64,000 nucleotides of DNA from Dehalococcoidia bacterium (GTDB lineage: Bacteria > Chloroflexota > Dehalococcoidia > Lucifugimonadales > UBA3495), in the NCBI GenBank assembly GCA_965115825.1, contig OZ220464.1, forward strand, positions 1,668,437 to 1,732,436. Reading direction: 5' to 3'. Of this stretch, positions 10,361-39,244 are shown piece after piece. How positions within the stretch are numbered: the first letter of the stretch is position 1; every line of letters starts with the position of its first letter. The notes under the pieces were generated by a model. The model searched no databases. It saw only the letters and a program-made list of their open reading frames with translations, and was not told where the DNA came from. Both the position numbers and the translations under genes were made by a program.

Positions 10361-10431
10361 GGGTTGTTAGGGGGTGGGTCGGTATTTGGCATAAGGTAGT
10401 GTGCCAGGAGTGTGCTGGTGTTGATGGGCTG

Positions 10432-12085: not shown

Positions 12086-12249
12086 ATGACTACTCGGATT
12101 TATACAGCATCAAAAACCCGCTCAAATAACCGACCTGGCTGGAGCGTGACGTTTACGCACCCGCGCCGTAGCGACGGACGCGGCAAGCTAGGACTGAAAA
12201 TGCGGCGCGGATTGGGTACCACGGATGATTCTGAGGCTGAGCGCCTGGT
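12086..12249 (+). pseudogene. 5' fragment of a gene (possibly tyrosine-integrase N-terminal arm domain) truncated by the CRISPR trailer
   Basis: An AAGGAGG RBS precedes an ATG encoding MTTRIYTASKTRSNNRPGWSVTFTHPRRSDGRGKLGLKMRRGLGTTDDSEAERLV. This resembles integrase N-termini (RPxGxW..Y/F.xP....LGT.D..EAE.L). The reading frame then runs straight into half a CRISPR repeat at 12250. Confidence 0.35.
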
Positions 12250-15200
12250 TGTGCGGGGGAGCCCTCCGGCAAATCGGTACTGCGTCCCGCCGGTGGGGTC
12301 TATCCCCGCGTGTGCGGGGGAGCCGGTCAACGTAGCCGAACCCGGTGCCGGAAGTCAGGTCTATCCCCGCGTGTGCGGGGGAGCCCGGGTGCGCAGTTCA
12401 CGATGCGCTACCTGGATGGGTCTATCCCCGCGTGTGCGGGGGAGCCTGACCAGCGTGTCGCAGGCTACCGTCTCGGCCGGGTCTATCCCCGCGTGTGCGG
12501 GGGAGCCAGCAACGACCTCGGGCCGGCTATACGTTCGTAAGGTCTATCCCCGCGTGTGCGGGGGAGCCAACGCAACGAGGCCCGGCCCCGTGTTCTGTAT
12601 CGGTCTATCCCCGCGTGTGCGGGGGAGCCATGTCAACGAGTAGATCGTTGGCAGCGTTCCGAGGTCTATCCCCGCGTGTGCGGGGGAGCCGGCCGCCAGA
12701 CTCATCAAGCCGTACGACACCCCGGTCTATCCCCGCGTGTGCGGGGGAGCCGAAAGGCGGTCAAACGGAAGGCTACCACGAGCGGGTCTATCCCCGCGTG
12801 TGCGGGGGAGCCGTCGTGTTCAGCAGCGCCGCCAACGCCGTGTCGCCTCTATCCCCGCGTGTGCGGGGGAGCCGTACTACACCAACCGGTGGCTCAATGC
12901 GCGCACGGTCTATCCCCGCGTGTGCGGGGGAACCTACGGATACATGCAGAACCCCTATGAAGTGCGGGGTCTATCCCCGCGTGTGCGGGGGAACCAGCCT
13001 GACCTCAGTCACCGCCGGCGGGCCTATCGGTCTATCCCCGCGTGTGCGGGGGAACCATATCTTGCGGACGTTGACCGTATTATCCGCAGGGTCTATCCCC
13101 GCGTGTGCGGGGGAACCACCGACGGCTCCCCATCGTGCCGGTACAGCCCCGGTCTATCCCCGCGTGTGCGGGGGAACCACCGTCGGCCAGTCCGCATAGT
13201 AGGCGGTCAGGGGTCTATCCCCGCGTGTGCGGGGGAACCATGGCATTAGGGCCTCCTTTTCGGCGAGGTGATGGTCTATCCCCGCGTGTGCGGGGGAACC
13301 GCCCGGACTGTACCTATGCCCTGATTGCGGCGGGGTCTATCCCCGCGTGTGCGGGGGAACCGCCAGAACCGCCGCCGATGCCGGGGCGCATCCTGGTCTA
13401 TCCCCGCGTGTGCGGGGGAACCCCGGCCTGTCGCGGACGGTCGGACAGTCAGTCCGGTCTATCCCCGCGTGTGCGGGGGAACCCCGGAGGGATACAATGG
13501 CAGTCCACGTAACTAAGGTCTATCCCCGCGTGTGCGGGGGAACCGGTTGGCGGGGGTTTTGGGTAATGGTGTAAATGGGTCTATCCCCGCGTGTGCGGGG
13601 GAACCACCGGGCAGGGGCCGCGCCATACCTCTTTGCCGGGTCTATCCCCGCGTGTGCGGGGGAACCCGCGCCGGCACCCCCGCCGTCTCGGCAATGTCCG
13701 GTCTATCCCCGCGTGTGCGGGGGAACCTGGCCTTTTGAGACAGACTTGGCTCGTATTCTAGGTCTATCCCCGCGTGTGCGGGGGAACCCTGCGGCCTGGT
13801 CAGCAGCATGGCGACGAGAGCGGTCTATCCCCGCGTGTGCGGGGGAACCGCCCCCACCCGGGCAGTGTACTGCGGCGCCCTGGGTCTATCCCCGCGTGTG
13901 CGGGGGAACCGGGCAGGGGTACACAGTGCCAGGGGACGGGCGGCGGTCTATCCCCGCGTGTGCGGGGGAACCCCCTCACCTTCGCCCTCAAACGCGGCTC
14001 CCCCGGGTCTATCCCCGCGTGTGCGGGGGAACCGTCCGCTGCCACTGAGCCGAATTCAGGTTCTGAGGTCTATCCCCGCGTGTGCGGGGGAACCTATTCA
14101 GCGTATTCTTTCCCCTCCTGAAAGGCGGGTCTATCCCCGCGTGTGCGGGGGAACCCCCAGGCCCAACTTTCCGCCGCCGGCGTGGGGCGGTCTATCCCCG
14201 CGTGTGCGGGGGAACCTGGCGGTCTCAAAAAGAGAGGGTGTTAACCCGGGGTCTATCCCCGCGTGTGCGGGGGAACCACAGCAACCCCGCCTTCACGGGC
14301 AACCAAATCCGGTCTATCCCCGCGTGTGCGGGGGAACCCCGACGCCTGCGCGACCCGGAGCGGCCAAATGGGGTCTATCCCCGCGTGTGCGGGGGAACCC
14401 ATCGAAAACCGCCTGTACCACGAGACCTGGGGGGTCTATCCCCGCGTGTGCGGGGGAACCTAATTTGACGCTATCTACCATATGACTAGGCAAGGTCTAT
14501 CCCCGCGTGTGCGGGGGAACCGAGCAGGCGGCGCCGGGGCGGATAGCGCACGCCTGTCTATCCCCGCGTGTGCGGGGGAACCGATATTGACGGTATTGGC
14601 GGCAGTGCCGCGGACGGTCTATCCCCGCGTGTGCGGGGGAACCCCCAGGCAGGCCGCCACATCCATTTGCGCATTCGGTCTATCCCCGCGTGTGCGGGGG
14701 AACCCAAAAAGCCGGTCGCCTCGTCGTAGTCGTAGAAGGTCTATCCCCGCGTGTGCGGGGGAACCCTCATAGATGGCGGCGATTTTGGCTTTGATAGTGG
14801 TCTATCCCCGCGTGTGCGGGGGAACCGTGCAGCGGCTACTGGTACTGTACCCACTGCGGGGTCTATCCCCGCGTGTGCGGGGGAACCCGGGAGGTTGTCC
14901 AAGATGATCTGGATAGCGGGGGTCTATCCCCGCGTGTGCGGGGGAACCGATGTCAAGCTGGAAGTCCGATAGCAGCAGGCCGGTCTATCCCCGCGTGTGC
15001 GGGGGAACCGCCGAGGACGGCAACGGGAACTACCGCGCGGCAGGTCTATCCCCGCGTGTGCGGGGGAACCGGATGCGGCCCGGCATCGGCGGCGGTTCCG
15101 GGGGGTCTATCCCCGCGTGTGCGGGGGAACCCGATAGCGCAAGCCGATGCAAAACACGCCGCCAGGTCTATCCCCGCGTGTGCGGGGGAACCCCCACCGG

Positions 15201-18200
15201 CTCATAGCGGATGCCCAGGGCGGTCGGTCTATCCCCGCGTGTGCGGGGGAACCCCTGCCCAATGTCAAATCCGACCTATTTTTTGGGGTCTATCCCCGCG
15301 TGTGCGGGGGAACCCCGCCACTGGCTTGCGCGGTCAGTGACGGCTACGGTCTATCCCCGCGTGTGCGGGGGAACCCGCCCAGACCCGGCGCCTTTACCCT
15401 GTCCGACGGGTCTATCCCCGCGTGTGCGGGGGAACCTATGGACAGCAGCTCGGCGATGTCGCGGTACGAGGTCTATCCCCGCGTGTGCGGGGGAACCCAA
15501 AAACCGACGCCGTCGTGTAGCGGCTGACGGGGTCTATCCCCGCGTGTGCGGGGGAACCCATCAGCTCGTCCAGCACCTCGTCCAGAGGAACGGTCTATCC
15601 CCGCGTGTGCGGGGGAACCCCCGGCGCGAGCGGTTGCTCATTCCCCGCCGAGGGTCTATCCCCGCGTGTGCGGGGGAACCCCGCACTGCCCGCGGGCCCC
15701 GGCCAGTGGACGCGGTCTATCCCCGCGTGTGCGGGGGAACCAGATCTGGTGGAGCAGCCCGACTACCCTGGTTGGGTCTATCCCCGCGTGTGCGGGGGAA
15801 CCATTTTATGATAGTAGCATTGCGTTTTATGATAAGGTCTATCCCCGCGTGTGCGGGGGAACCCGCCGGGCGTTGGCGGCGTAGGTCTGCCCCAGGGGTC
15901 TATCCCCGCGTGTGCGGGGGAACCGTAGCAGTCTATCGGGACGATGCGGATGAGGCTGGTCTATCCCCGCGTGTGCGGGGGAACCGCTGCCGCCCGCGAC
16001 TACGGCTTTATCAGCACGGGTCTATCCCCGCGTGTGCGGGGGAACCTCCCGGCAATGGCCTCCGGGGATGGGCGGCTCCGGTCTATCCCCGCGTGTGCGG
16101 GGGAACCGCCCCCGGCGTCCTGAACCGCCGGGGGCTGATGGGTCTATCCCCGCGTGTGCGGGGGAACCGACATGACGGCTTCGCATACAGCATCATCTTG
16201 GGGTCTATCCCCGCGTGTGCGGGGGAACCTGGACGACGCCGGCCCCGAAAGCCCCTATCGCAGGTCTATCCCCGCGTGTGCGGGGGAACCGGGCCTTGGC
16301 GACTGCGGCTTGCCACTGGCCGGGGTCTATCCCCGCGTGTGCGGGGGAACCTGATGAGTTCCTCTTCAGCTTGCATCGGTCTCAGGTCTATCCCCGCGTG
16401 TGCGGGGGAACCGCGATATGGGCAACGACAGCAGCCCACGCCCGCGGTCTATCCCCGCGTGTGCGGGGGAACCCTCCGGCGGCATTTGATACAGCCCCCG
16501 GTCGACGGTCTATCCCCGCGTGTGCGGGGGAACCTCACCCGCTGGAGCTCTATCTGAAGGGTCTGACGGTCTATCCCCGCGTGTGCGGGGGAACCACCTG
16601 AAATGCGTGGACACCAACTCGTGGTACAGGTCTATCCCCGCGTGTGCGGGGGAACCACCCGGAGTACCCGCCCCCATACGCTGACAAGGGGTCTATCCCC
16701 GCGTGTGCGGGGGAACCTCCAGCTGGCCGGTTTTGAGGTCGAGCAGGCCAGGTCTATCCCCGCGTGTGCGGGGGAACCCGGTTCAAACTCGATATTCTGG
16801 TTGTTGCCCAGGGTCTATCCCCGCGTGTGCGGGGGAACCAGAATAAATCGAGCGCTTTCACCATAGCCGCCCGGTCTATCCCCGCGTGTGCGGGGGAACC
16901 ATAGTCCTCGACCACCCGACCGCCTTCGCCAGCGGTCTATCCCCGCGTGTGCGGGGGAACCCAGTCAGCATAGTAGGCGGTCAGGTAGGGGGCGGGTCTA
17001 TCCCCGCGTGTGCGGGGGAACCAGCCTACGAACGGGGTGAGGAAGCGGCCCGAAAGGTCTATCCCCGCGTGTGCGGGGGAACCACTATGCCGGCATTGGC
17101 GCCGGGTTCTACCGAGGGTCTATCCCCGCGTGTGCGGGGGAACCCTGGTGGTCGTGCTGGTGGGGCGGCGGGCTTCGGGTCTATCCCCGCGTGTGCGGGG
17201 GAACCTCACCGAGTGGACTAACTCGGCGATCCCGCCGGTCTATCCCCGCGTGTGCGGGGGAACCACCGACGGCGCCGGAGACCGTCGCTGGTGAAAGGTC
17301 TATCCCCGCGTGTGCGGGGGAACCCCTCGTGCCCCTGGGTTACATCGTAAAGCTTGGGGTCTATCCCCGCGTGTGCGGGGGAACCATAACGACGGGCTGC
17401 AAGTCATCTATTAGAACAGGTCTATCCCCGCGTGTGCGGGGGAACCCGGTGGAGCGGGCGGATGCGCTGGTGCAGGTGGGGTCTATCCCCGCGTGTGCGG
17501 GGGAACCCCGGAGAGGGGCGCCGCCTTGTTGCGGGTGGAGGGTCTATCCCCGCGTGTGCGGGGGAACCATGGTAGCGTCCACCCAGGACTTGGTGTAATA
17601 GGGTCTATCCCCGCGTGTGCGGGGGAACCGAACCACTCGATGTCGTAACTGTTGCTGCTGCGGGTCTATCCCCGCGTGTGCGGGGGAACCCCTCCGACAA
17701 GCCGGCGTATCCCCCAATGACGAGGTCTATCCCCGCGTGTGCGGGGGAACCGTTCGGCGGCGCCGGGCGATATGGCTTTGGAGAGGTCTATCCCCGCGTG
17801 TGCGGGGGAACCTTTGCACTACGGACCATGATATGAAGCCGGCGGGGTCTATCCCCGCGTGTGCGGGGGAACCTTCACCGATTCGCATAAGAGGGCCTCA
17901 CGGTAAGGTCTATCCCCGCGTGTGCGGGGGAACCCTTTACATATGCCCGCAGTGCGGAGGTAAGAAGGGTCTATCCCCGCGTGTGCGGGGGAACCCGCTT
18001 TTCCACCATCCCCAAGGGCGAACCGGACGGTCTATCCCCGCGTGTGCGGGGGAACCCCGACGGCCACGCCGTAGCCTGCGCCGCCGCGGGGTCTATCCCC
18101 GCGTGTGCGGGGGAACCGACCAGGCTTGCAAGGACGTCGCCCGACTCTGCGGTCTATCCCCGCGTGTGCGGGGGAACCACCATGGCGCCCCAGGTCTCGT

Positions 18201-21200
18201 GGTACAAGCGGGGTCTATCCCCGCGTGTGCGGGGGAACCAGGTCGCACCAGTGTTCAATCGCCGGCCTGGTGGGTCTATCCCCGCGTGTGCGGGGGAACC
18301 GCTCCCTCGCCTATGCCCCCGACCCCGAGGCGCGGTCTATCCCCGCGTGTGCGGGGGAACCGAGGGCAAGGACGATAACGCCCGCGTCATCCAGGTCTAT
18401 CCCCGCGTGTGCGGGGGAACCCTATGGAGGTCGTAAGAAATGGCGATTGACACCGGTCTATCCCCGCGTGTGCGGGGGAACCTCCGCCTTCGGCTTGGGC
18501 CGGGTGATGAACGTGGGTCTATCCCCGCGTGTGCGGGGGAACCGGGGACAATACCGTCATCACCACGCGGGGGGACGGTCTATCCCCGCGTGTGCGGGGG
18601 AACCAAGACCGGCAAATCATCCTGAACATAAGAGCCCGGTCTATCCCCGCGTGTGCGGGGGAACCGGTATCCGCTCACTAGCCAGCGGCACGACCCGAGG
18701 TCTATCCCCGCGTGTGCGGGGGAACCGCCGACAGCAGCAAGTCCCGCGCCGCCTCGGTCGGTCTATCCCCGCGTGTGCGGGGGAACCTCGGGCGGATTTG
18801 GCAGATTGATACACCAGCAAGGTCTATCCCCGCGTGTGCGGGGGAACCCTCTAGTCAGTCGCATTGGCATGAGACGCCTCCGGTCTATCCCCGCGTGTGC
18901 GGGGGAACCACCTTCATTGGCGATTTCGCTCGGTCAGTTCTCGGTCTATCCCCGCGTGTGCGGGGGAACCAACAGCAGGTCGGCGGCTTGGTGTTTCGGG
19001 CAGGGTCTATCCCCGCGTGTGCGGGGGAACCCCCGAAGGCAACCCCGTCGTCTACGCCCTGATGGGTCTATCCCCGCGTGTGCGGGGGAACCCCGGGCGA
19101 CATTGGTCGGGGGATACAGGAGACGGGTCTATCCCCGCGTGTGCGGGGGAACCCGCCTGGGCAACCTCCGCCGCCGTCAGCGTCAAGGTCTATCCCCGCG
19201 TGTGCGGGGGAACCAGTAGCCGGTCTATCCGGTCTCGGGCGTAGGCGGGTCTATCCCCGCGTGTGCGGGGGAACCACGATGTAGGGGTCGCGGGGCAACG
19301 GCTGATGGGGTCTATCCCCGCGTGTGCGGGGGAACCGGTAAATCACGCAATGCATCGTAATCGGGAAACGGTCTATCCCCGCGTGTGCGGGGGAACCTCG
19401 CAACTTTTGCCGTCCTAGCAGCAGGATATGGGTCTATCCCCGCGTGTGCGGGGGAACCAATGCTTATGATACCGGCGCGATACGTTGCGGAGGTCTATCC
19501 CCGCGTGTGCGGGGGAACCAAAAAGAGGGGGGCAAAAATGCCTACCATTGAGGGTCTATCCCCGCGTGTGCGGGGGAACCCGGCCCCGCAAGCATGACAG
19601 CCCGTCCGTGCGGGGTCTATCCCCGCGTGTGCGGGGGAACCGTAATGTATACATGTGCGATACCGATAGCATAGGGTCTATCCCCGCGTGTGCGGGGGAA
19701 CCCACGCCGGCCGAGGGCACATTCCGGAGGTGTCGGGTCTATCCCCGCGTGTGCGGGGGAACCGCGGTGGGGAGTCGCATGCTGCCGCAGCAGCGCGGTC
19801 TATCCCCGCGTGTGCGGGGGAACCACGGTGGGAAGATGGCGCTGGCAAGAGGGATCCGGTCTATCCCCGCGTGTGCGGGGGAACCGACCTGCTGAGCTGC
19901 AAGAGCTGCGGCAGCCGCGGTCTATCCCCGCGTGTGCGGGGGAACCTAGCTATAGAAGGACGGGGGCGCCAGGAGCGTCGGTCTATCCCCGCGTGTGCGG
20001 GGGAACCCTGCTTACCGACGCGGCGGATAAGGCGGCGGCCGGTCTATCCCCGCGTGTGCGGGGGAACCTACCGCTGGCCGCTCCATTTTGGGCCCCCGGA
20101 AGGTCTATCCCCGCGTGTGCGGGGGAACCGCGCCGTAAGCAAGCCGGCCCGCGCCGTTGAGCGGTCTATCCCCGCGTGTGCGGGGGAACCGACATCGCGG
20201 AGACTGCGGGGGTGCCGGCGCGGGGTCTATCCCCGCGTGTGCGGGGGAACCGGTTCCGGCTTTCGCAAGGGCTTGAGGCTATGCGGTCTATCCCCGCGTG
20301 TGCGGGGGAACCTTTTGATGAGGTCAATGGGGTTCATGATGCTCCGGTCTATCCCCGCGTGTGCGGGGGAACCCTGATGTGGCAACCCCGGCACAGCGTC
20401 CGGAGGGGTCTATCCCCGCGTGTGCGGGGGAACCCCAGTGCTCGTCCCCATCGGGACGGGTGCCCAGGGTCTATCCCCGCGTGTGCGGGGGAACCAACTG
20501 GGTCCCTATCGGCGCGCCGGTATTGAGAGGTCTATCCCCGCGTGTGCGGGGGAACCCCCCGTTGGGCATGCAGACAGAAGCGTTGCGCTGGTCTATCCCC
20601 GCGTGTGCGGGGGAACCGTCAGCGGTCTTCAGGAGGCAGAGGTTACAGGAGGTCTATCCCCGCGTGTGCGGGGGAACCCTGACGCCGGTCATCATCGCCC
20701 TGACGCCGGCGGGTCTATCCCCGCGTGTGCGGGGGAACCCTTGAGACTAGCCTCCGGGCCGCCGAGCGGGAGGGTCTATCCCCGCGTGTGCGGGGGAACC
20801 TCGCCGCCCGCCGGCAGCACCTTCGCGTCCAAAGGTCTATCCCCGCGTGTGCGGGGGAACCCGCTCCTCTATCCAGTCGAGGCCCTCCCGCACCGGTCTA
20901 TCCCCGCGTGTGCGGGGGAACCCGAAACCAGTTGTGTACAGCAAGGACTGCTACAGGTCTATCCCCGCGTGTGCGGGGGAACCAACTGGGTCCCTATCGG
21001 CGCGCCGGTATTGAGAGGTCTATCCCCGCGTGTGCGGGGGAACCCACCATACCTCGCAGTTGAAGTCCGACGGGATGGGTCTATCCCCGCGTGTGCGGGG
21101 GAACCATGCCGTCCCCGCGCCCCGCCGCCCCGTGCCGGGGTCTATCCCCGCGTGTGCGGGGGAACCAGCTTCACATGCACCACGCCGGCCGAGGGCACAG

Positions 21201-24200
21201 GTCTATCCCCGCGTGTGCGGGGGAACCCTAGGACGGCAAAAGTTGCGACTGGCAATGATGGGTCTATCCCCGCGTGTGCGGGGGAACCGCGCCAGTGTTG
21301 ACGTCGCTGCCGGCCTCCGCAGGTCTATCCCCGCGTGTGCGGGGGAACCGTGGCCATGGCATTCCAGTTCGCCACTTGCGTGGGTCTATCCCCGCGTGTG
21401 CGGGGGAACCGGCCCGGCCCGTTGGCCGATTACGCCGGCAAAGGGTCTATCCCCGCGTGTGCGGGGGAACCTCACGCCCCATCCCCGGGGGTTCATCCGG
21501 GAGGGGTCTATCCCCGCGTGTGCGGGGGAACCAACTATCACGATTGGCAACATCGCCGCCGCCGAGGTCTATCCCCGCGTGTGCGGGGGAACCTTGAAGT
21601 CCGACGGGATGTTGCCGCCGGCGAAAGGTCTATCCCCGCGTGTGCGGGGGAACCTAAGTCGCTCCACCGCCCACAAGGCCGCCAACTGGTCTATCCCCGC
21701 GTGTGCGGGGGAACCGCCGCGCCGCGTCGGTATGCCATAGCATCGCGGGGTCTATCCCCGCGTGTGCGGGGGAACCCCGGCCCGGCCCGTCGGTTACCAG
21801 GGCCGGAGCGGTCTATCCCCGCGTGTGCGGGGGAACCCTTCGGGCCGCCGCATTCGGGGCATAGGTACAGGGTCTATCCCCGCGTGTGCGGGGGAACCCG
21901 ATGTAACGCAGGGGCACGAGGTTGCGATCCGGGTCTATCCCCGCGTGTGCGGGGGAACCCCGGATACCGCTACCGGACTACCATGGGGTCAGGGTCTATC
22001 CCCGCGTGTGCGGGGGAACCCGTCTGATTTACCGCGACCCCCGCACTTATTACGGTCTATCCCCGCGTGTGCGGGGGAACCCCCACGCCTTGGGCCTGCA
22101 TCAGGATGTCCAGCGGTCTATCCCCGCGTGTGCGGGGGAACCGGTCGTGGTGGTACATCCGTCAGTACGACTCGGGGTCTATCCCCGCGTGTGCGGGGGA
22201 ACCCTTCGGGCCGCCGCAATCGGGGCATAGGTAACGGGTCTATCCCCGCGTGTGCGGGGGAACCCTTGGACGTATAGGCCTTCGGGCCGCCGCATTCGGT
22301 CTATCCCCGCGTGTGCGGGGGAACCTTGACTTGCTGGCGATCAGTCCAGCAAGCCGGAGGTCTATCCCCGCGTGTGCGGGGGAACCAGCGGCGGCGGCGG
22401 CCAACGCGGGCCGGGCCGGGGTCTATCCCCGCGTGTGCGGGGGAACCACGCAGGCGTAGCATACCGCCACATTGCGGGGGGGTCTATCCCCGCGTGTGCG
22501 GGGGAACCGTCATCGCGAATGTCCACCACCTTCGTGATGAAGGTCTATCCCCGCGTGTGCGGGGGAACCCAGTAGTCGCAGACGAGGGCCAGACGAGGGG
22601 TGGGTCTATCCCCGCGTGTGCGGGGGAACCTGGCCGGTGAGCTGGTGAACCCCCCGCGTCAACGGTCTATCCCCGCGTGTGCGGGGGAACCTGATTTTCT
22701 CGCCGCCAATTTTGCCAATGGAAGGGTCTATCCCCGCGTGTGCGGGGGAACCTGGCCGGTGAGCTGGTGAACCCCCCGCGTCAACGGTCTATCCCCGCGT
22801 GTGCGGGGGAACCGAGGTCAATCGGGTTCATGATGTTCTCCTATTGGGTCTATCCCCGCGTGTGCGGGGGAACCATTGAGCACTGGTGCGACCTGTTGGG
22901 CCTCGGGGGTCTATCCCCGCGTGTGCGGGGGAACCCGTGAAGGCGCACCTGGAACCGACGCACCAGACGGTCTATCCCCGCGTGTGCGGGGGAACCTGCC
23001 CCGGGTAGCCGATGGCGGCGTGAAAATAGGGTCTATCCCCGCGTGTGCGGGGGAACCACCTATGGTGTCAACAGCCCCGCCCGGGTAGCGGGTCTATCCC
23101 CGCGTGTGCGGGGGAACCGAACGCAAGCGGCGGCTGCGGCGGGGGATGGACGGTCTATCCCCGCGTGTGCGGGGGAACCACGGGGATGCTCAAAAAGGTA
23201 TGTCCGTCAATGGGTCTATCCCCGCGTGTGCGGGGGAACCTGCCACCCGTCCCGGTCAATGCGACGCATTAAGGGTCTATCCCCGCGTGTGCGGGGGAAC
23301 CTGGATGGACGCGATAGCCGGCCGCCCGCCCGGCGTGTCTATCCCCGCGTGTGCGGGGGAACCTGCCACTCCGTGCCGGGGGCGTCGGGGGTAATGGGTC
23401 TATCCCCGCGTGTGCGGGGGAACCCGGCCCGCGACGTGGACGCCGACTGGATTTGCAGGTCTATCCCCGCGTGTGCGGGGGAACCAGCCTGAGGGTCATA
23501 ACTGCGGACTGCTCGAACGGTCTATCCCCGCGTGTGCGGGGGAACCATCGTCGCCGCCGGACGATGCGCCGGCGGGAAGGGTCTATCCCCGCGTGTGCGG
23601 GGGAACCCCCCAGGTCTCGTGGTACAGGCGGGATTCGACGGGTCTATCCCCGCGTGTGCGGGGGAACCTCCGTCCATCATCAGTCCACCCATCCGCCGCG
23701 CGGTCTATCCCCGCGTGTGCGGGGGAACCCCGTCGCCTGCGCGACCCTGACCGGCCCAGTGGGGTCTATCCCCGCGTGTGCGGGGGAACCACCGCCCACA
23801 CCTCGAAAGTGTGATAGCCCGGAGGTCTATCCCCGCGTGTGCGGGGGAACCGATGTCCAGCTTGGTCTCGATTACGGCCAGCCGGGTCTATCCCCGCGTG
23901 TGCGGGGGAACCCGACATCGCCGCTGAAAATGACCTCAAAGGCAGGGTCTATCCCCGCGTGTGCGGGGGAACCGGGACGGGCGGCTTGTCAGCGGTCAAT
24001 GCGTGGGGTCTATCCCCGCGTGTGCGGGGGAACCGCGTGCCGAAAGCGGCCAGTGAGTAGCGCATAGGGTCTATCCCCGCGTGTGCGGGGGAACCACTGC
24101 CATAGTGCGCCGTCCAGTCGGGCGGCAGGGTCTATCCCCGCGTGTGCGGGGGAACCTAGGCAGGGCCGCCACGCGGCCCGCTCCATTTGGGTCTATCCCC

Positions 24201-27200
24201 GCGTGTGCGGGGGAACCTCGGGGGGACACGCCGGGGCGCGACATGCTGCAGGTCTATCCCCGCGTGTGCGGGGGAACCGCAGCCGCACGGGACAAGCAGT
24301 CCCAACCTGGGGGTCTATCCCCGCGTGTGCGGGGGAACCGCCGCTTGCGTGGCGCCGTGCATGTACAACATCGGTCTATCCCCGCGTGTGCGGGGGAACC
24401 GGCATTCAGCGGGCTCAACCGAACGGTCGGCAGGGTCTATCCCCGCGTGTGCGGGGGAACCCCGATAGCATAGCAATGTGGCCAGCGCGTCCACGGTCTA
24501 TCCCCGCGTGTGCGGGGGAACCAGCATGACTTTAGGCTTGTCGCCGGGCAGGTATGGTCTATCCCCGCGTGTGCGGGGGAACCCCGTTGGCGGTAGCGAT
24601 GTAGGCGGTCAGCGCGGGTCTATCCCCGCGTGTGCGGGGGAACCCCGTCGCTGGTCCCTGGACGCAGCTCGATGTACGGTCTATCCCCGCGTGTGCGGGG
24701 GAACCTGGCCGACGTCAAGGAGGAGCTCGAAAAAGAGAGGTCTATCCCCGCGTGTGCGGGGGAACCATGTGTCGCAGCTCCGTGCTCCCCGGAGTCCGGG
24801 GTCTATCCCCGCGTGTGCGGGGGAACCCCGATCTTCTCGAGGATCGTCTGCGGATTTTGAGGTCTATCCCCGCGTGTGCGGGGGAACCCCTCCCGGATAA
24901 ACCCCCGGGGATGGGGGGTGAGGTCTATCCCCGCGTGTGCGGGGGAACCCCGTTTGAGGGCGAAAGAGAGGGAACGCAGGCCGGTCTATCCCCGCGTGTG
25001 CGGGGGAACCAACCCAACGTCGGGAGGATGGAACTGCCGACCGGGTCTATCCCCGCGTGTGCGGGGGAACCCCAAACCGGCGCCCTGGACACCGCAGGCC
25101 CGGAGGTCTATCCCCGCGTGTGCGGGGGAACCCCCAGCGGCATTCCGAACGCCGATCGCAACGACGGTCTATCCCCGCGTGTGCGGGGGAACCGTTCCGA
25201 ACGCCGACCGCAACGACTTGCTGGCGGGTCTATCCCCGCGTGTGCGGGGGAACCACCCCAACGTCGGCAGAATAGAACTCCCGACCGGGTCTATCCCCGC
25301 GTGTGCGGGGGAACCCGTTCGGGACGCCGCCGGGCAGCATTATTTTGAGGTCTATCCCCGCGTGTGCGGGGGAACCCCTTTGCCCGTATGGGCGTTCTCG
25401 TAGACCAGGGGTCTATCCCCGCGTGTGCGGGGGAACCATTGAACACTGGTGCGACCTGCTGGGCTACGGCGGTCTATCCCCGCGTGTGCGGGGGAACCTC
25501 CTTTGAGCAGTTGGGTAAGGGCGTTGATGGCGGTCTATCCCCGCGTGTGCGGGGGAACCCCCGCAGAACGAACCCCAAAGCGGCGCCGAAAGGGTCTATC
25601 CCCGCGTGTGCGGGGGAACCACCGCCATAGACCACCAGCAAGCCCCCGGGCAAGGTCTATCCCCGCGTGTGCGGGGGAACCGTGTCGCTATCAGAACCAG
25701 CGTCTCAACCGTCGGGTCTATCCCCGCGTGTGCGGGGGAACCCCCAGTGCCAATCCTGTTCGGCAAGGGGGCGGAGGTCTATCCCCGCGTGTGCGGGGGA
25801 ACCGTCCCCGGAGCTGCCCAAGCTGCCTTGCCGGAGGGTCTATCCCCGCGTGTGCGGGGGAACCGGTCATAGCCCGTGATAAGCCGGGGATAGATGCGGT
25901 CTATCCCCGCGTGTGCGGGGGAACCGGAGCGTCGGTTGGCGGGGCGGGCGTACCAGCCGGTCTATCCCCGCGTGTGCGGGGGAACCCCAAACTGTTCGAC
26001 GTTACGCAGGGGCACGAGGGGTCTATCCCCGCGTGTGCGGGGGAACCGGGGCAAAAAGTGACAACCGTCTCGCAGTACGAGGTCTATCCCCGCGTGTGCG
26101 GGGGAACCCCCCATTGACCTCATCAAAAAAATCGTCCTGGGGGTCTATCCCCGCGTGTGCGGGGGAACCCCACCCTGGCTGAAAAGTTCGAGCAGTCCGC
26201 AGGGTCTATCCCCGCGTGTGCGGGGGAACCACCCACCGATGGAAACCACCAGCGCCAGCAAGAGGTCTATCCCCGCGTGTGCGGGGGAACCTCGGCCTTC
26301 AATTCCTTGAGGTTGCCCGTCGTCGGTCTATCCCCGCGTGTGCGGGGGAACCGTCGTAACTCCCACCGGCTCCGGCGGGTGTCGGGGTCTATCCCCGCGT
26401 GTGCGGGGGAACCGCGGCGGGATGCTATCGCCATTCATCCCTCCTCGGTCTATCCCCGCGTGTGCGGGGGAACCGCCCCGAACAGCTCATGATGAAGTGG
26501 CTGGAAAGGTCTATCCCCGCGTGTGCGGGGGAACCCGCTTGGAGTCGAGATGGATTTTGCCGACGTGAGGTCTATCCCCGCGTGTGCGGGGGAACCCATC
26601 AGGTCGTCTATCACCTCGTCCAGCGGCACGGTCTATCCCCGCGTGTGCGGGGGAACCCCTCCGGGCCGGAGGGGTGGCATCAAAAGGAGGGGTCTATCCC
26701 CGCGTGTGCGGGGGAACCCGCCAGCAGGTCGTTGCGGTCGGCGTTCGGGACGGTCTATCCCCGCGTGTGCGGGGGAACCGGGTTCACCCATACCCAAGGC
26801 CGGGTCAATGCGGGTCTATCCCCGCGTGTGCGGGGGAACCCCGCTCCTCCGTCTGGCCGCTGAATATCGAGACGGTCTATCCCCGCGTGTGCGGGGGAAC
26901 CAGCGAGGCGTGGAACGAGCTGTACGAACAGGCGGGTCTATCCCCGCGTGTGCGGGGGAACCGACAGGACAGGCTATGATATAGTCAACGGCATGGGTCT
27001 ATCCCCGCGTGTGCGGGGGAACCAAGCCGTATGACGCCCCGGAGTTCGCCGATGGGGGTCTATCCCCGCGTGTGCGGGGGAACCTGTACCAGGAGTTGGT
27101 GTCCACGCAATGAAGGTGGTCTATCCCCGCGTGTGCGGGGGAACCCCGGGCGGTCGGTCAAAATCGGGTGGGCCGACGGGTCTATCCCCGCGTGTGCGGG

Positions 27201-30200
27201 GGAACCTTCTCCGTCTTCGGTTCGCCGCAATCAATGCAGGGTCTATCCCCGCGTGTGCGGGGGAACCCCGCCACACTGGCATTGACTGCCATGTACCCGG
27301 GGTCTATCCCCGCGTGTGCGGGGGAACCAAAATGGCTATCGACACATTTGCCCCCCAGTACGGTCTATCCCCGCGTGTGCGGGGGAACCGGGTTGACCCA
27401 TACCCAAGGCCTGGTCAATGCGGGTCTATCCCCGCGTGTGCGGGGGAACCCGGCCGTGTCTCGTACTGCACCCCCAGCACGCCGGTCTATCCCCGCGTGT
27501 GCGGGGGAACCGCAAGCGCCGGCGCCAACATCACCGGCGCTCACGGTCTATCCCCGCGTGTGCGGGGGAACCCCAGGGCGGGACATGTTGCACTTCGCCA
27601 TCGGGGGTCTATCCCCGCGTGTGCGGGGGAACCCCTCCGGGCCGGAGGGGTGGCATCAAAAGGAGGGGTCTATCCCCGCGTGTGCGGGGGAACCTCAAAC
27701 CGGCGGCGGACACCAAGGTTGGTATAGGGTCTATCCCCGCGTGTGCGGGGGAACCTACGACCAGGAGTACACGCTCACCATCGACCAGGGTCTATCCCCG
27801 CGTGTGCGGGGGAACCCTCTAAGCAGGGCCACGCGGGCCGCTCCATTTGGGTCTATCCCCGCGTGTGCGGGGGAACCAGGTGCCTTTCGGTGGCGGTTTG
27901 GGAGAGTATCGGTCTATCCCCGCGTGTGCGGGGGAACCATGGTGAAGACGTGGAAGCCGGGTTCCGGCTCGGGTCTATCCCCGCGTGTGCGGGGGAACCC
28001 GTAATCGGCGGCAAGCCCCCCGGCGCGAGCGGGGTCTATCCCCGCGTGTGCGGGGGAACCGCTGCTGGGCGAGGCGGATACCGAGCAGGGGACGGTCTAT
28101 CCCCGCGTGTGCGGGGGAACCAGGCCGCGTCAATGCGTTCGGGTCTTCCGCCAGGGTCTATCCCCGCGTGTGCGGGGGAACCGGTCGGGGTGGAGACGGC
28201 GCCGTCGCCTGAGGAGGTCTATCCCCGCGTGTGCGGGGGAACCACATACGCCGCAACCAGTCCAGCGCGCCAGGAGGGTCTATCCCCGCGTGTGCGGGGG
28301 AACCATGAGCCGGTCGGCGATATAGTCGATATCGGCCGGTCTATCCCCGCGTGTGCGGGGGAACCAGGCCGGCGTATCCCCGCACCACCCCGGCGGCGGG
28401 TCTATCCCCGCGTGTGCGGGGGAACCTACTCCAAGTGGGAGTACGTGATGCGGATGAAGGGTCTATCCCCGCGTGTGCGGGGGAACCATGCTGGACATCA
28501 ACACCAACATTCGCAATGAGGGTCTATCCCCGCGTGTGCGGGGGAACCCTGCTGGTCTGGGTGGCGGTTGGCGACGGGCATGGTCTATCCCCGCGTGTGC
28601 GGGGGAACCAACCGCCGGCGCAATAACGCCCCATCCTCGCGGGGTCTATCCCCGCGTGTGCGGGGGAACCTCCGGGCGGCCAAAATGGAGCGCCCAGCGG
28701 TAGGGTCTATCCCCGCGTGTGCGGGGGAACCATGTCGGACTCCACTATATAAATAGGAAGGATCGGTCTATCCCCGCGTGTGCGGGGGAACCTATCCTCC
28801 TGGTGATGTATGCGGCGCCGGGGACGGTCTATCCCCGCGTGTGCGGGGGAACCATGGCGCAGTACATGATGCAGGCCGACCGGGAGGGTCTATCCCCGCG
28901 TGTGCGGGGGAACCGCGGCCCGGCACCTGTTCGAGATCACTTTGGAGGGTCTATCCCCGCGTGTGCGGGGGAACCCCGCCCAAAATGCCGGCGGGCGCCG
29001 GGGTGTCGGGTCTATCCCCGCGTGTGCGGGGGAACCTAGATAGCGGCGATTTTGGCTTTGATAGTTTCGGGTCTATCCCCGCGTGTGCGGGGGAACCGCG
29101 CGGCATTCTCGGCGGGTCAGTGGAGGCAGGGGTCTATCCCCGCGTGTGCGGGGGAACCCCGCCGCAAGCCGAAGCGGCCGGCGTGGTTCGCGGTCTATCC
29201 CCGCGTGTGCGGGGGAACCCGTAATGAACGACTGGGTCAGCCGACGTACCGCGGTCTATCCCCGCGTGTGCGGGGGAACCCAGCTCCGCTATCCGCTGCT
29301 GCGAGGCCAGACGGGTCTATCCCCGCGTGTGCGGGGGAACCCATCAGCTCGTCCAGCACCTCGTCCAGCGGAACGGTCTATCCCCGCGTGTGCGGGGGAA
29401 CCCCCGGCGGCACTCCCTCACCATCCGACGCCGGAGGTCTATCCCCGCGTGTGCGGGGGAACCCCCGATATGGCCTTACTATGCGACGCAGTGGACGGTC
29501 TATCCCCGCGTGTGCGGGGGAACCGTAGGCAGTAACGGCCTGGTCAACAACTTTAACGGTCTATCCCCGCGTGTGCGGGGGAACCCCTGGTCGACGAACG
29601 GCTCGTCCGCCCACCCGAGGTCTATCCCCGCGTGTGCGGGGGAACCGACAAGCCTAAAGTCATGCTGGGACCCAAGCCCGGTCTATCCCCGCGTGTGCGG
29701 GGGAACCGAGTCCACATAGATACCGCTGCCCAACTGCGGCGGTCTATCCCCGCGTGTGCGGGGGAACCTAGCCATGCCGGTAGGCGCCGGTCGGGGTGCA
29801 GGGTCTATCCCCGCGTGTGCGGGGGAACCCCTCCCGGATGAACCCCCGGGGATGGGGCGTGAGGTCTATCCCCGCGTGTGCGGGGGAACCCCTGCCTTGC
29901 TGCTGCTGGCCGTCAACGGCAGCGGTCTATCCCCGCGTGTGCGGGGGAACCGTCGATAGCCATTTTTCAATCACCTCTAAGCAGGGTCTATCCCCGCGTG
30001 TGCGGGGGAACCGCCACCTATGCCCGGGGCACAAATATGACCGACGGTCTATCCCCGCGTGTGCGGGGGAACCGCCCCGAACAGCTCATGATGAAGTGGC
30101 TGGAAAGGTCTATCCCCGCGTGTGCGGGGGAACCATAGTGCGGGTGCTGTACAAGCTGGCCGAATAGGGTCTATCCCCGCGTGTGCGGGGGAACCGTGGG

Positions 30201-32879
30201 CGGATGAGCTGCGAGACATAGCGTTGCTGGTCTATCCCCGCGTGTGCGGGGGAACCTTCGGCAGGCCAAAGAAAAGGTCGGTGGACGGGGGTCTATCCCC
30301 GCGTGTGCGGGGGAACCAGTTCCGCCGGCCGGTTGTCGGGGCCGGAGGGGGGTCTATCCCCGCGTGTGCGGGGGAACCAGCAGCTAGGCCCCCCCCGCCG
30401 ACAGCGGCTTGGGTCTATCCCCGCGTGTGCGGGGGAACCCGGATGTGGCTGAGGTGGTGGGCAGAGGAGTCCGGTCTATCCCCGCGTGTGCGGGGGAACC
30501 CTGGCCTACGAACTGGCGGAAGACCCGAACGCAGGTCTATCCCCGCGTGTGCGGGGGAACCTACGACCAGGAGTACACCCTCACCATCGATCAGGGTCTA
30601 TCCCCGCGTGTGCGGGGGAACCTCCTCATCTACGTAAATGCAGATGTCGATGCGAGGTCTATCCCCGCGTGTGCGGGGGAACCCCACTATCAGGAGGCAG
30701 ACTGATGGACGGGATGGGTCTATCCCCGCGTGTGCGGGGGAACCCGTCGTCGCGACATTCGTCGCACGCAACGCAGGGGTCTATCCCCGCGTGTGCGGGG
30801 GAACCACCCGAACACGGATACTAACCGCTCGTTGGGGAGGTCTATCCCCGCGTGTGCGGGGGAACCTCGGCGCCGGGAAAAACAAGTCATCGTCAAAAAG
30901 GTCTATCCCCGCGTGTGCGGGGGAACCGGCTAGGACTGACCGCTGGCGGTGGCGCATCTAGGTCTATCCCCGCGTGTGCGGGGGAACCTCTATAAGATAC
31001 AGAACACGGGCCCGGGTGTCGGGTCTATCCCCGCGTGTGCGGGGGAACCGAGGTGCAGTTCGTGGCCGGCACGACGCGGGACGGTCTATCCCCGCGTGTG
31101 CGGGGGAACCTGCAAGGCGTTGACTCGCTGGTGTCCGTAACCCGGTCTATCCCCGCGTGTGCGGGGGAACCGTGTAGGTGCGCTCCCATTGCGTGCTACT
31201 CAAGGGTCTATCCCCGCGTGTGCGGGGGAACCCGACTTCGCCGCAAGCCAGGCCAGGGTGGCGGCGGTCTATCCCCGCGTGTGCGGGGGAACCTCGGCGA
31301 TATTTATCCCGCCGCCCAGTCGGATGGGTCTATCCCCGCGTGTGCGGGGGAACCGAGTTCTCGTCGGTTAGCGACGTGGACAGAACCGGTCTATCCCCGC
31401 GTGTGCGGGGGAACCATCCGCGTTTTGAGGGATGAGGCGGAGTCGAGGGGTCTATCCCCGCGTGTGCGGGGGAACCGTGGTGCTTCACGCCGATGACAGT
31501 TCCGTCGGGGGTCTATCCCCGCGTGTGCGGGGGAACCGTCTACCACAATGGCGGCGTGTTTTGCATCGGCGGTCTATCCCCGCGTGTGCGGGGGAACCAA
31601 CCCATCGGCGAACTCCGGGCGGTCATAGGGCGGTCTATCCCCGCGTGTGCGGGGGAACCGGGCTTGGCGATGGTGAAGACGTGGAAGCCGGGGGTCTATC
31701 CCCGCGTGTGCGGGGGAACCAGGATAGCATCAGCAGGGCGGCGTTGCGGGCGGGGTCTATCCCCGCGTGTGCGGGGGAACCTCCTATGACGGGTTCATCT
31801 CGATGATTTTAATCGGTCTATCCCCGCGTGTGCGGGGGAACCCTTCGCTGGCGGCAACATCCCGTCGGACTTCAAGGTCTATCCCCGCGTGTGCGGGGGA
31901 ACCTTCCATCGGGTTCCTGCCGACGGCGCCCATCGGGGTCTATCCCCGCGTGTGCGGGGGAACCTGTACCACGAGACCTGGGGCGCGATGGTGGTGCGGT
32001 CTATCCCCGCGTGTGCGGGGGAACCCCGACGGCGCCGGCGCCGCATCCCTGGCCAAGCGGTCTATCCCCGCGTGTGCGGGGGAACCGGGAAAAACAAGTC
32101 ATCGTCAAAAATTTTGCCCGGTCTATCCCCGCGTGTGCGGGGGAACCGCAATACGTCCACCCCGTGGTACTCCACTGGCGGGTCTATCCCCGCGTGTGCG
32201 GGGGAACCCTATCTTTGATGCGGGTTACGGCAAATGTGTATGGTCTATCCCCGCGTGTGCGGGGGAACCCCTACCGTCCGCCGCCCGATGATGGGAACGT
32301 CGGGTCTATCCCCGCGTGTGCGGGGGAACCCCAACGAGCTGCGCCTCGAGGAGGTCTACCCCGGGTCTATCCCCGCGTGTGCGGGGGAACCACGGGGATA
32401 GTCCTGCCGGCCGTGCTGAAGTCGGGTCTATCCCCGCGTGTGCGGGGGAACCTTGACATCGAGATTGACTATTTCCTGCTGGTGAGGTCTATCCCCGCGT
32501 GTGCGGGGGAACCCAAGCGAACGACGCCCGGTCCCGTGTTCTGAATGGTCTATCCCCGCGTGTGCGGGGGAACCCCCAGCGCTGCTGCGGTTGGCCGTCA
32601 ACAGCGGGGTCTATCCCCGCGTGTGCGGGGGAACCGCCCGCCGGGGAGACACCCCGGGGCGGGACATGGGTCTATCCCCGCGTGTGCGGGGGAACCGACG
32701 GGGATAGTCCTGCCGGCCGTGCTGAAGTCGGTCTATCCCCGCGTGTGCGGGGGAACCCCCCTGGGGTTCACCAGGCGGATGGATGTCCCGGGTCTATCCC
32801 CGCGTGTGCGGGGGAACCGGCATCCCTGGACTCCACGCCGACGGCCCGGGAGGTCTATCCCCGCGTGTGCGGGGGAACC
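12250..32879 (-). CRISPR. type I-E CRISPR array, about 338 repeats and 337 spacers (estimated)
   Basis: The 28-nt repeat GGTCTATCCCCGCGTGTGCGGGGGAACC (plus strand) recurs every 61 bp (occasionally +/-1) from 12297 to 32879, and a half repeat GTGCGGGGGAGCC sits at 12250..12262. The reverse complement GGTTCCCCCGCACACGCGGGGATAGACC matches the E. coli I-E repeat architecture (CCCCGC-N4-GCGGGG hairpin, ATAnACC handle). The array is therefore read on the minus strand with the leader next to cas2. Confidence 0.99.
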
Positions 32880-32909: not shown

Positions 32910-33218
32910 TCATTCGCCTCGGGGACGGGACTGACCGTATCTTACCAAGTACACGCCGTCAGCGTCTATAACTTCCTTGGGCGGTTCTCCCAAACTTCTG
33001 ATGCTCTGCTGTCCCGGCGCCGACGGATCTCTCCAAGTCATCACGATTGAGCCGTTGCCCAACTCGCCGTGCCAACGCGCCAGCACATCCCAGATACGTT
33101 CTCTGATGCCGCTGGTCAGATCCGGAGACGTGTACACCCCCGGGGCTATCTCCAGCATCACCGATGCCAGAAACCCCCGATACCGCCCTTCTACGTTCAC
33201 TGTCACGACCACCGTCAT
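32910..33218 (-). CDS. cas2: CRISPR-associated endoribonuclease Cas2 (I-E)
   Basis: From the ATG at 33218 it reads MTVVVTVNVEGRYRGFLASVMLEIAPGVYTSPDLTSGIRERIWDVL..., collinear with E. coli Cas2 ([31 protein letters not shown]...). It sits last in the cas operon. Confidence 0.9.
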   Translation of the reverse strand: MTVVVTVNVEGRYRGFLASVMLEIAPGVYTSPDLTSGIRERIWDVLARWHGELGNGSIVMTWRDPSAPGQQSIRSLGEPPKEVIDADGVYLVRYGQSRPRGE

Positions 33219-33223
33219 CAGCG

Positions 33224-34189
33224 CTATCCCTCTGAGGAGCTCTCGTCCAGCCAATCTTCCAGCAGACTCACATCATCAACGCTTCTCGGCGCCGGCTTGC
33301 TCTCCAGTGGCGGCACGTCCTGAAACAGGGTTTTGATGCGGTCGATCATCTTGGAAATAACCCGCTCCGTCCGTAGCAGATCGCCCGTGGTTCGCCTGGT
33401 GTGCCTTTCTATATCCAGTCGGTTATTTCCGGCGACCTCGGCCGCCGATTTGAACGCCGCCGGCAGCAGGACCGTATCCCGGAAGAGGTCTGCAATGTCC
33501 AGGGCAAACGCTTCGCCGCTGTGCTCGTGGATGAACCCGAGCTGCGGGATTGCCCCCAGCGATGTCACTGCAATTACCGCCGCTGCCGTAACCGCAACTG
33601 AAGCGTGGTTGATGGCTTGATTCGGAATGTCTGCCGCCATGGGGTTGGCCCGGTCATAGCGCCGCCCCCGCCACTCTATGCCATACTGCCGCGACAAGTT
33701 CTGATAGGTGCGTTTCATCCGCGCGCCTTCGATGCCGCGCAATGCGGTGATGTCCATATGGGGCAGCACTTCGCCCAGACGCAGGGCATACATTTTCCGG
33801 GCAATCGTGATTCGGCTACCCTCCGGGTCGCCCCAGGCCCGCATCTGCCGCCGCGCGATGTCTGAGGTGTCCGGCATCAAGGGCGGCGCCGTATAGCACC
33901 GCACGCCATCCTCTCCGACGGCCACTAATCCGGTGCCGTGTCGCGCCATCAGCCGCAGGGCATCGTGGCTTACCGTAGAACCGGGGCCCAACAGGATCAT
34001 GGAAAGGCTCTGAAAGGGAATACCGTATTCGCCGGCCGCCAGCGGGCTGGCGGCGTCCGGCCCGGCCTGCCGTTCAAAACGGAGCGTACCATCCCGTACC
34101 GTCAGAGCGCCGCGGGACAACCAAAGCAGCCCGTGACGGTCGGCGTGGGGTATCCGCGCCGTTTCCAGTCCTAACCTTCCTCTCAGCAT
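33224..34189 (-). CDS. cas1: CRISPR-associated integrase Cas1 (I-E)
   Basis: 321-aa ORF with a GAGGAG RBS. Cas1e-like features include the N-terminal beta domain (LLWLSRGALTVRDGTLRF) and the helical catalytic domain (NHASVAVTAAAV...GFIHEHSG). It lies directly upstream of cas2. Confidence 0.93.
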   Translation of the reverse strand: MLRGRLGLETARIPHADRHGLLWLSRGALTVRDGTLRFERQAGPDAASPLAAGEYGIPFQSLSMILLGPGSTVSHDALRLMARHGTGLVAVGEDGVRCYTAPPLMPDTSDIARRQMRAWGDPEGSRITIARKMYALRLGEVLPHMDITALRGIEGARMKRTYQNLSRQYGIEWRGRRYDRANPMAADIPNQAINHASVAVTAAAVIAVTSLGAIPQLGFIHEHSGEAFALDIADLFRDTVLLPAAFKSAAEVAGNNRLDIERHTRRTTGDLLRTERVISKMIDRIKTLFQDVPPLESKPAPRSVDDVSLLEDWLDESSSEG

Positions 34190-34295
34190 CTCAACTCCTC
34201 GCGCGATATTTGCCGCGGCAGGGGTTATTCAGTTTTTAATCTGCGCTGACCCAGGTAGCCGCCGACCGCCTAGCGCTCTAATGCTTGGCGGAGCA

Positions 34296-35763: not shown

Positions 35764-35768
35764 GGAGA

Positions 35769-36941: not shown

Positions 36942-36957
36942 TAGGCTGCTCCCTGTC

Positions 36958-39149: not shown

Positions 39150-39244
39150 TGTCAAGGGCTCCTTTTGGGATCCCGCATTTGGCGCACTTGGGTTCTGTGT
39201 AACATCAGATGCCAGCGCTGTCAACTCTTGCGCCGGGGCGGTAA

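Follow-up and report, generated by a model that had tools for sequence, protein, structure and literature searches.

The window analysed here is a stretch of 64,000 nucleotides (nt) from a Dehalococcoidia bacterium (NCBI GenBank assembly GCA_965115825.1, contig OZ220464.1, positions 1,668,437 to 1,732,436 of the forward strand), which carries a long type I-E CRISPR array and, next to it, a complete cas operon (Table 1). The subject of the analysis is one repeat near the far end of the array, the last two bases of which are not those of the canonical repeat but those of cas5e, a gene of the adjoining operon, together with the spacer that follows it, which matches the same gene. The system has the features of type I-E in its eight-gene operon and in its repeats, which are of the 28/29-nt kind, contain an internal hairpin, read ..AUAxACC at the 3' end and recur with a period of 61 bp. 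All eight cas genes have NCBIfam matches; those of cse1 (61.5 bits against 70.05) and of the full-length cas3 equivalog fall below the curated cut-off, and the cas3 core and HD domain models pass theirs. The NCBIfam match of cas5e stops at residue 185, near the sequence that the spacer targets, and a frameshift at this point was considered and ruled out, the frame being continuous to a typical C-terminus. The nearest relatives of Cas5e, at no more than 78% identity, are found in metagenome-assembled genomes labelled Dehalococcoidia, Chloroflexota, Binatia, Entotheonella and Caldilineaceae, in which the repeat is essentially identical to that of the window. The type I-E systems of this clade resemble those of Chloroflexota that are associated with sponges and of neighbouring phyla.

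The array consists of 28-nt repeats and 33-nt spacers, with a period of 61 bp in 332 of its 337 intervals, although spacers of 31-34 nt are present. The repeat reads GGTCTATCCCCGCGTGTGCGGGGGAACC on the + strand and GGTTCCCCCGCACACGCGGGGATAGACC in the sense of the CRISPR RNA (crRNA), which is that of the - strand. The leader ends ..CGCCAAGA, its final bases being ..CCAAGA and the last two of them GA; a ..CCAAGA/G end is kept across relatives. Only 30 nt (32880-32909) separate the cas2 stop codon from the first repeat, such that the promoter and the integration signals must overlap cas2. At the far end the terminal repeat is truncated (12236-12263), reading GGCTCCCCCGCACA before it gives way to unrelated sequence. 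Ten repeats at the trailer end have C in place of T at repeat position 3, which defines a T/C variant boundary within the array, and the variants among the 338 repeats, besides the altered one, are nine GAGCC repeats at the trailer end and two that begin TGTCTAT.

Table 1. Features of the array, the operon and the altered unit, in window coordinates.
Feature	Position	Strand	Description
Type I-E CRISPR array	12236..32879	-	338 full repeats and a truncated terminal repeat; leader end at 32879
Neighbouring older spacer	12752..12784	-	From a diverged cse1; flipped relative to the AA protospacer-adjacent motif (PAM)
Trailer-side copy of the shifted 28-bp duplication	12787..12814	-	Identical to 12848-12875
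Duplicated dinucleotide	12813..12814	-	AC in crRNA sense, GT on +; equals 12874-12875, the end of the upstream spacer
Inserted 33-nt spacer, true register	12815..12847	-	GGCGACACGGCGTTGGCGGCGCTGCTGAACACG in crRNA sense; 33/33 to 35227-35259; canonical array spacer length
Altered repeat	12846..12873	-	GGCTCCCCCGCACACGCGGGGATAGA+GG in crRNA sense; positions 1-26 are repeat, last two equal the first two bases of the cas5e insert
Leader-side copy of the shifted 28-bp duplication	12848..12875	-	AC + repeat 1-26; identical to 12787-12814
Upstream spacer, probably in place before the cas5e insertion	12874..12906	-	Last two bases, AC, duplicated
Candidate 1-nt offset internal insertion	14555..14582	-	Repeat ends ..GACA; preceding base equals base before next repeat, C/C
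Candidate 1-nt offset internal insertion	23336..23363	-	Repeat ends ..GACA, 62-bp period; A/A equality
Complete type I-E operon	32910..41947	-	cas3, cse1, cse2, cas7, cas5e, cas6e, cas1, cas2; open reading frames (ORFs) intact
cas5e	35011..35763	-	Intact 250-aa ORF; TIGR01868, E 3e-50
Protospacer in cas5e	35227..35259	-	Encodes ..EGDTALAALLNT.., residues ~169-179
AA PAM of the protospacer	35260..35261	-	TT on + strand

On the + strand the altered repeat reads CCTCTATCCCCGCGTGTGCGGGGGAGCC, and is the sole repeat of the 338 to begin CCTCTAT. The two substituted bases, CC on this strand, equal positions 35258-35259 of cas5e and belong to a longer identity, in which 12815-12848 is the same as 35227-35260 in the gene. 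These 34 nt are made up of the 31 nt of the nominal spacer, the substituted CC and a T which is also the canonical repeat base. At the far end of the match, 12814 is mismatched (T against G) and 12813 is matched. The spacer is therefore self-targeting, its match in cas5e lying 22.4 kb away and covering 33/33 positions when the shifted register is used, or 32/33 with the nominal one. A sequence-only reading of the window had already drawn attention to this repeat, claiming a CCTCTAT start with the substituted bases taken from cas5e, an AA-flanked 33-mer lying 2 nt out of register, an AC filler at its other end with the 61-bp period kept, a changed crRNA handle, and GGC opposite the handle in the target. 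Each of these observations holds, the handle being AUAGAGG+C. Spacer and target also constitute 34-bp direct repeats 22.4 kb apart (12815-12848, 35227-35260), recombination between which would delete cas6e, cas1, cas2, the leader and 328 spacers.

When the 338 spacers were compared with 43 kb of sequence outside the array, the only significant matches were those of the cas5e spacer (E 3e-13) and of its neighbour (E 2e-5), which is discussed below. When all spacers were scanned at the peptide level for resemblance to the Cas proteins, no cas-derived spacers were added to these two, and the score of the neighbour, which matches cse1, was within noise. The only source found that combines a 33/33 match with a flanking AA is the window's own cas5e. 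The best of 80 homologues matches at 29/33, and the flank in the homologues is mostly AG or AC, not AA. The spacer is therefore of self origin, or else was supplied by an allele that is virtually identical, and an origin in a foreign operon was ruled out, the best homologue reaching 29/33.

A megablast of the whole 20.6-kb array against a phage collection gave no match, nor did a scan of viral contigs with a degenerate pattern for a spacer that had been acquired three times. The PAM of the array family was therefore deduced from spacers which share part of their sequence at an offset. In 22 of 34 such overlaps (at least 19 nt) AA stands immediately 5' of the 33-mer, the background for this dinucleotide being 3.8%, and AA is likewise found at two cross-locus protospacers. 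Moreover, the first base of the spacers is variable in the array, from which it follows that the repeat is truly 28 nt long and that its terminal CC normally lies within the segment that is duplicated on integration.

Read in crRNA sense, the order of the elements around the altered repeat is the upstream spacer ending ...GTAGT-AC, then GGCTCCCCCGCACACGCGGGGATAGA, GGCGACACGGCGTTGGCGGCGCTGCTGAACACG, AC and GGCTCCCC...GACC. In other words, two copies of 'AC + repeat 1-26' flank exactly those 33 nt that follow AA in cas5e, and both copies contain the trailer-type C at repeat position 3. Such an arrangement is that of a target-site duplication displaced by two bases, and it explains all 61 nt of the unit with zero mutations. 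An off-register integration at an internal repeat, with both nicks 2 bp leaderward, is the best explanation for the altered repeat and a probable one. In the putative course of events, the cas5e of the cell itself, or else an allele all but identical to it, would have supplied a 33-bp prespacer, cut immediately 3' of the AA PAM. Cas1-Cas2 would then have integrated this prespacer in the normal orientation at an internal repeat, where each of the two nicks lay 2 bp leaderward of its usual site and the 28-bp stagger was retained, such that gap repair would duplicate 'AC + repeat positions 1-26' in place of the repeat. The upstream repeat copy would thereby lose its terminal CC, its apparent GG end being the first two bases of the insert, and the AC copied from the end of the upstream spacer would come to lie between the insert and the downstream repeat, leaving the period at 61 bp. 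These proposed steps, from the cutting of the prespacer to the placing of the AC, can be read off the sequence of the unit itself.

This model makes a demand which can be checked within the array, in that the filler dinucleotide must equal the bases that precede the targeted repeat. The filler AC is indeed the end of spacer 12874-12906, and differs from the leader end GA. Since the AC comes from the upstream spacer and not from the leader, the insertion was internal, downstream of an existing spacer. An internal insertion also explains why the altered repeat end is absent from the 328 newer repeats, all of which are canonical. The unit accordingly has the properties of an ectopic acquisition, as it lies downstream of an older spacer and its change has not been inherited by newer repeats, and those of an offset integration, as AC stands before both the altered and the next repeat with a period of 61. 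It is not a spacer slipped in the classical sense, because the block starts right after AA and measures 33 nt, and it is the end of the repeat that has changed. An offset of 3 nt with one retained PAM base was also considered, and is ruled out by TAC against GAC and by the period, which would be 62.

The same final sequence would be reached, however, if a 33-mer (CGACAC...CGCC, with a GG flank) had been acquired in the nominal register and a toxic guide had later been disabled by selected mutations, CC to GG in the repeat and one base in the spacer. There is some precedent for this, in that degraded repeats beside self-targeting spacers have been reported (Stern et al. 2010, as cited in PMC3338789). 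It is nevertheless quite improbable here. Three substitutions are needed, two of them side by side and each agreeing with the target by chance (1/9), whilst the third must recreate the dinucleotide of the upstream spacer (background 0.079). Moreover, the acquisition would have started from a non-AA PAM although AA dominates the array family, and the footprint seen at altered repeat ends in other arrays, described below, would be left without explanation. In a different proposal, a normally acquired spacer had its identity with the cas5e gene extended by 2 nt through gene conversion or recombination between the two, for which the 34-bp direct repeats are potential partners. In this case cas5e sequence would be expected at both ends of the spacer, whereas the far end reads AC and the gene CC. 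As such an exchange also carries no prediction that the AC should equal the end of the upstream spacer, and cannot account for footprints at unrelated spacers elsewhere, it is very unlikely.

A displaced duplication leaves a footprint that can be sought in other arrays, namely that an altered repeat and the one that comes next are preceded by the same k nt. This equality was scored over 5,620 repeats from 69 related arrays and the window, the cases being singleton repeats altered solely at their last 1-2 nt. Between neighbouring canonical repeats, the background is an equality of 26.3% for the last base of adjacent spacers and 7.9% for the last two. The footprint is present at four of five two-base altered ends, these being in locus L053 (CG), L063 (AC, at an unrelated spacer), L066 (GT) and the window, and at 4/5 of the one-base altered ends, or 6/7 if an adjacent pair in L042 is counted. 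With the focal case excluded, the counts are 3/4 for two-base and 6/7 for one-base ends, with a Fisher-combined P of 4.5e-5. The leader ends of these loci are conserved as ..AAGA or ..AAGG, and wherever they are readable (the leader of L066 was not captured) the duplicated bases differ from them in L063, L053, L042, L050 and the window, from which it follows that those events were internal. Within the window itself there are two further candidates for 1-nt offset insertions (Table 1), the terminal A of which could be a retained PAM base.

The array of L034 differs in that its 15 leader-proximal repeats (12956-13837) end in T, not C, and that the base before the first canonical repeat is the last base of the leader. 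This fits a leader-proximal offset of 1 nt, the result of which was then inherited by 15 newer repeats. It is instructive with regard to the possibility that the cas5e spacer likewise entered at the leader-proximal repeat, a slip of 2 nt being confined to the spacer-side nick, from a 35-nt prespacer, with one mutation, and with the newer part of the array restored afterwards by recombination with another array. A chronological order of this kind would naturally place the spacer beside another cas-derived spacer and at the T/C boundary, and spacers of 31-34 nt do occur in the array. The leader ends in GA and not AC, however, and the altered repeat should have passed to all newer repeats as it did in L034, whereas all 328 are canonical. 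Such an origin, which takes one more mutation, one more recombination event and, for the AC, a coincidence of 1/16, is unlikely. As to an error of sequencing or assembly, arrays are repetitive and the window apparently comes from a metagenome-assembled chromosome, but an error would not reproduce the bases of cas5e together with a matching AC duplication at an unchanged period of 61 bp, and the footprint occurs in independent assemblies as well. An artefact is thus scarcely credible.

The consequences of the off-register integration for the guide can be considered by analogy with E. coli. Hairpins are intact on both sides of the spacer, such that Cas6e should still cut after the hairpin and processing should be normal. 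Indeed, when handle positions -1 to -3 of the E. coli type I-E system were mutated by Westra et al., processing was unaffected (PMC3764190). The crRNA would carry the handle AUAGAGG(+C), not AUAGACC, and its guide would be 2 nt out of register with the protospacer. Cse1 would read GG(C) in the target flank, not AA(N), and Cascade would have G at both handle positions where E. coli Cascade needs C. In E. coli, handle positions -2 and -3 must both be C, and defence is lost with C-2G (PMC3764190). Neither the effective flank (GG against the family PAM AA) nor the handle (AUAGAGG against AUAGACC) is that of an interference-competent configuration, and the cas5e unit would, by analogy, be disabled twice over. 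Either defect should prevent Cas3 attack on cas5e, which would explain both how the operon can be intact in the presence of a perfect self-match and why no self-spacer survived but one that had been integrated aberrantly.

It is in this context that the two alternatives offered by the sequence-only reading, tolerance of the self-spacer and slipped integration, can be assessed, and they are in part borne out, being better regarded as consequence and cause, respectively. An aberrant (slipped) integration is strongly supported by the shifted 28-bp duplication and by the footprint in related arrays, and a non-PAM or a defective handle is a plausible cause of the tolerance. The suggestion that Cascade would see a repeat-like 'self' configuration finds no support. 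Complementarity between handle and target flank is present by construction, but in E. coli type I-E a type III-like pairing mechanism has been excluded by experiment, self/non-self discrimination and PAM reading being independent of base pairing between handle and flank (PMC3764190). Moreover, the flank resembles the mutated handle only, and not the end of the canonical repeat.

A full match which is not cut might also be thought to serve a function, in that Cascade carrying this crRNA could bind cas5e and tune the expression of the cas genes. Repeat-like regulatory RNAs aimed at cas loci are known (bioRxiv 10.1101/2023.03.03.530964), and in L001, the locus with the closest Cas5e relative, a mini-array lies inside the operon with a first spacer that resembles the 3' end of cas5e. 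Known regulators, however, combine a correct PAM with partial complementarity, whereas the present unit has full complementarity, no PAM and a crippled handle. As the unit is, furthermore, conserved in 0/69 related arrays and lies ~20 kb from the leader, a regulatory role is highly improbable.

The mini-array of L001 (10712-10866) has three repeats and is situated between cas5e and cas6e. The cas5e 3' ends that its first spacer resembles are those of other lineages, where the match has an AA PAM, and its repeats share a variant ..ATGGGCA end. Solitary repeat-like elements (..GTTCCCCCGCACACGCGGGGATAG..) occur in many relatives ~4 kb upstream of cas5e and on the opposite strand, examples being, on the - strand, L004 6110-6146, L013 6324-6360 and L023 4954-4990. 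A search of the window for a 20-nt core, with up to 3 mismatches allowed, gave no stand-alone element of this kind.

The neighbour of the cas5e unit on its trailer side is an older spacer (12752-12784) which also resembles a cas gene. Against the antisense strand of the resident cse1 (38089-38121) it matches at 24/26 positions of the core and 24/33 overall, and it fits better to cse1 genes of the 'KGGQTEGY' subtype (26-27/33). In all four closest cse1 homologues the match is followed at its 3' flank by TT, which is AA on the other strand, and the spacer is thus a flipped one from a diverged cse1. To judge from its sequence, it looks to be derived from another type I-E operon. There are, then, two adjacent cas-derived spacers, both aberrantly integrated and both predicted to be non-interfering, in what looks like survivorship. 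Their clustering suggests a single early episode in the history of the array, in which the cas5e fragment entered at about the second repeat. It is conceivable that priming by the flipped spacer on the resident cse1 may have driven acquisition from the cell's own cas operon.

An array that preserves the state before the insertion would give the most direct view of such an event, and was sought in several ways. Metagenome scans for the neighbouring spacer and for the cas5e block gave no match, and exact-protein look-ups returned no record for the flanking major facilitator superfamily (MFS) transporter, with either of two start choices, or for Cas5e. A homology search with the MFS transporter gave one close relative, L081, the trailer flank of which is 96-99% identical. 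Its array is reduced to the last spacer and a duplicated degenerate terminal repeat, and hence cannot show the state before insertion. In L081 the degenerate terminal repeat is duplicated around an extra 33-nt spacer (9073-9210). The remainder of the array is missing, as is the type I-E operon, both having been replaced beside a serine-recombinase-like fragment, with a type I-C operon ~5 kb away. A further locus, L082, was set aside as a comparison array, being too distant.

Several considerations weigh against an internal off-register insertion as the origin of the unit. The first is that no related array without the cas5e unit, which would give a direct before-and-after comparison, was found in these searches. 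The second is that the insertion hit the repeat at the T/C boundary, adjoining another cas-derived spacer, the chance of which is ~2/338 for a random internal site. This clustering is the chief unexplained coincidence for a purely random internal insertion, and suggests that an added assumption is needed, that of an early event at about the second repeat of a then-short array. Thirdly, the two-ruler model for E. coli anchors the second nick to inverted-repeat motifs inside the repeat, and a coordinated shift of both nicks is not predicted by it (PMC5039180). Lastly, with regard to tolerance, the consequences for handle and PAM carry results from E. coli over to a Dehalococcoidia-type system. 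The unit is, moreover, the 329th of 338 from the leader, such that its tolerance could be due to low expression by itself, or low abundance may be a third factor beside the two defects.

Comparison with known systems places the unit amongst several established phenomena without its being identical to any one of them. Self-targeting spacers flanked by degraded or mutated repeats are on record (Stern et al. 2010, as cited in PMC3338789; survey in PMC7708048). The present unit shares with them a perfect host match beside intact cas genes, an abnormal adjacent repeat and a likely escape from autoimmunity. It differs from them in that the repeat was changed by the integration event itself, with a shifted duplication, and not by later mutation, and in that the target is the system's own cas5e. 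It resembles the 'slipping' of type I systems, as summarised in bioRxiv 10.1101/2020.02.10.942821 (Shmakov 2014 and others), in that the guide lies 1-2 nt out of register with the optimal PAM. Classical slipping, however, is a mis-trimming of the prespacer which leaves the repeats intact, whereas here the prespacer is correct, the cut at the target site has slipped and the end of the repeat is rewritten. A repeat end derived from the protospacer and not propagated recalls the PAM-derived last repeat nucleotide of E. coli type I-E (Swarts et al. 2012, PMC3338789), but that 29th base lies outside the duplicated 28 bp, whereas both changed positions here lie inside it and AA stands directly beside the 33-mer.

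Entry at a repeat other than the leader-proximal one is known as ectopic acquisition from the type II-A system of S. thermophilus (PMC7999890, PMC5338259), and rare internal acquisition has already been noted in E. coli arrays (PMC4081107). The ectopic cases described are, as far as checked, in register, and it is by their offset of 1-2 bp that the internal events reported here are recognised. The integrase belongs to the same family as that of the E. coli type I-E two-ruler system (Goren et al. 2016, PMC5039180), with which it shares a 28-bp staggered cut and duplication. In the two-ruler model the spacer-side nick is anchored to motifs in the repeat, whereas in the footprints both nicks move together and their 28-bp spacing is kept. 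In a limited search of the literature, no description was found of repeat-end variants that arise, at internal repeats, when the two nicks are shifted together by 1-2 bp, and the text of a recent survey of repeat mutations in 56,343 arrays mentions neither ectopic acquisition nor slipping.

The altered repeat is, then, to be seen as an error of integration for which there is a good explanation, and not as a new mechanism of immunity. A 'mutated repeat next to a self-spacer' becomes the readable record of one such error, with every base explained, and as the footprint needs no protospacer it separates repeat variants born of integration from ordinary mutations in any array. If general, the phenomenon bears on how Cas1-Cas2 measures the second nick, by a fixed spacing or by motif-anchored rulers. 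It would also bear on the frequency of internal array growth, which is relevant to the use of arrays as chronological records, and on the existence of harmless perfect self-matches, which is relevant to searches for anti-CRISPRs by way of self-targeting spacers.

A broader reading, which joins these strands and is offered as a tentative and rather doubtful possibility, combines a rigid-caliper Cas1-Cas2, off-register docking, a filter on self-spacers and possible self-priming in this genome. According to this reading, the Cas1-Cas2 of the clade would set both nicks as a rigid 28-bp caliper and not by repeat-anchored rulers, and where no leader lies beside the repeat it would dock 1-2 bp off. 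Off-register internal insertions would thereby be a recurrent source of repeat-end 'mutations', and would act as a filter, letting otherwise lethal self-derived spacers persist. The cas5e spacer may then stem from a self-primed episode, given that the adjacent flipped cse1-type spacer matches the resident cse1 at 24/33 positions (24 of the first 26) and could have prompted uptake from the resident cas operon 2.8 kb away.

Some further features of the window may be recorded. In the leader-proximal part of the array, two spacers (32392-32424 and 32697-32729) stem from one protospacer at an offset of 1 nt and form a classical slip pair, their repeats being canonical, and exact duplicates of spacers also occur, for example 26719-26751, which is the same as 27695-27727, and 26536-26568, which is the same as 30135-30167. 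Beyond the trailer end, window positions 9327-10480 consist of tandem units of ~265 bp. Two ORFs of 58 aa in these units (9732-9908 and 9997-10173) are nearly identical, and repeated BLAST matches in this region suggest that the copy number may differ from that in L081.

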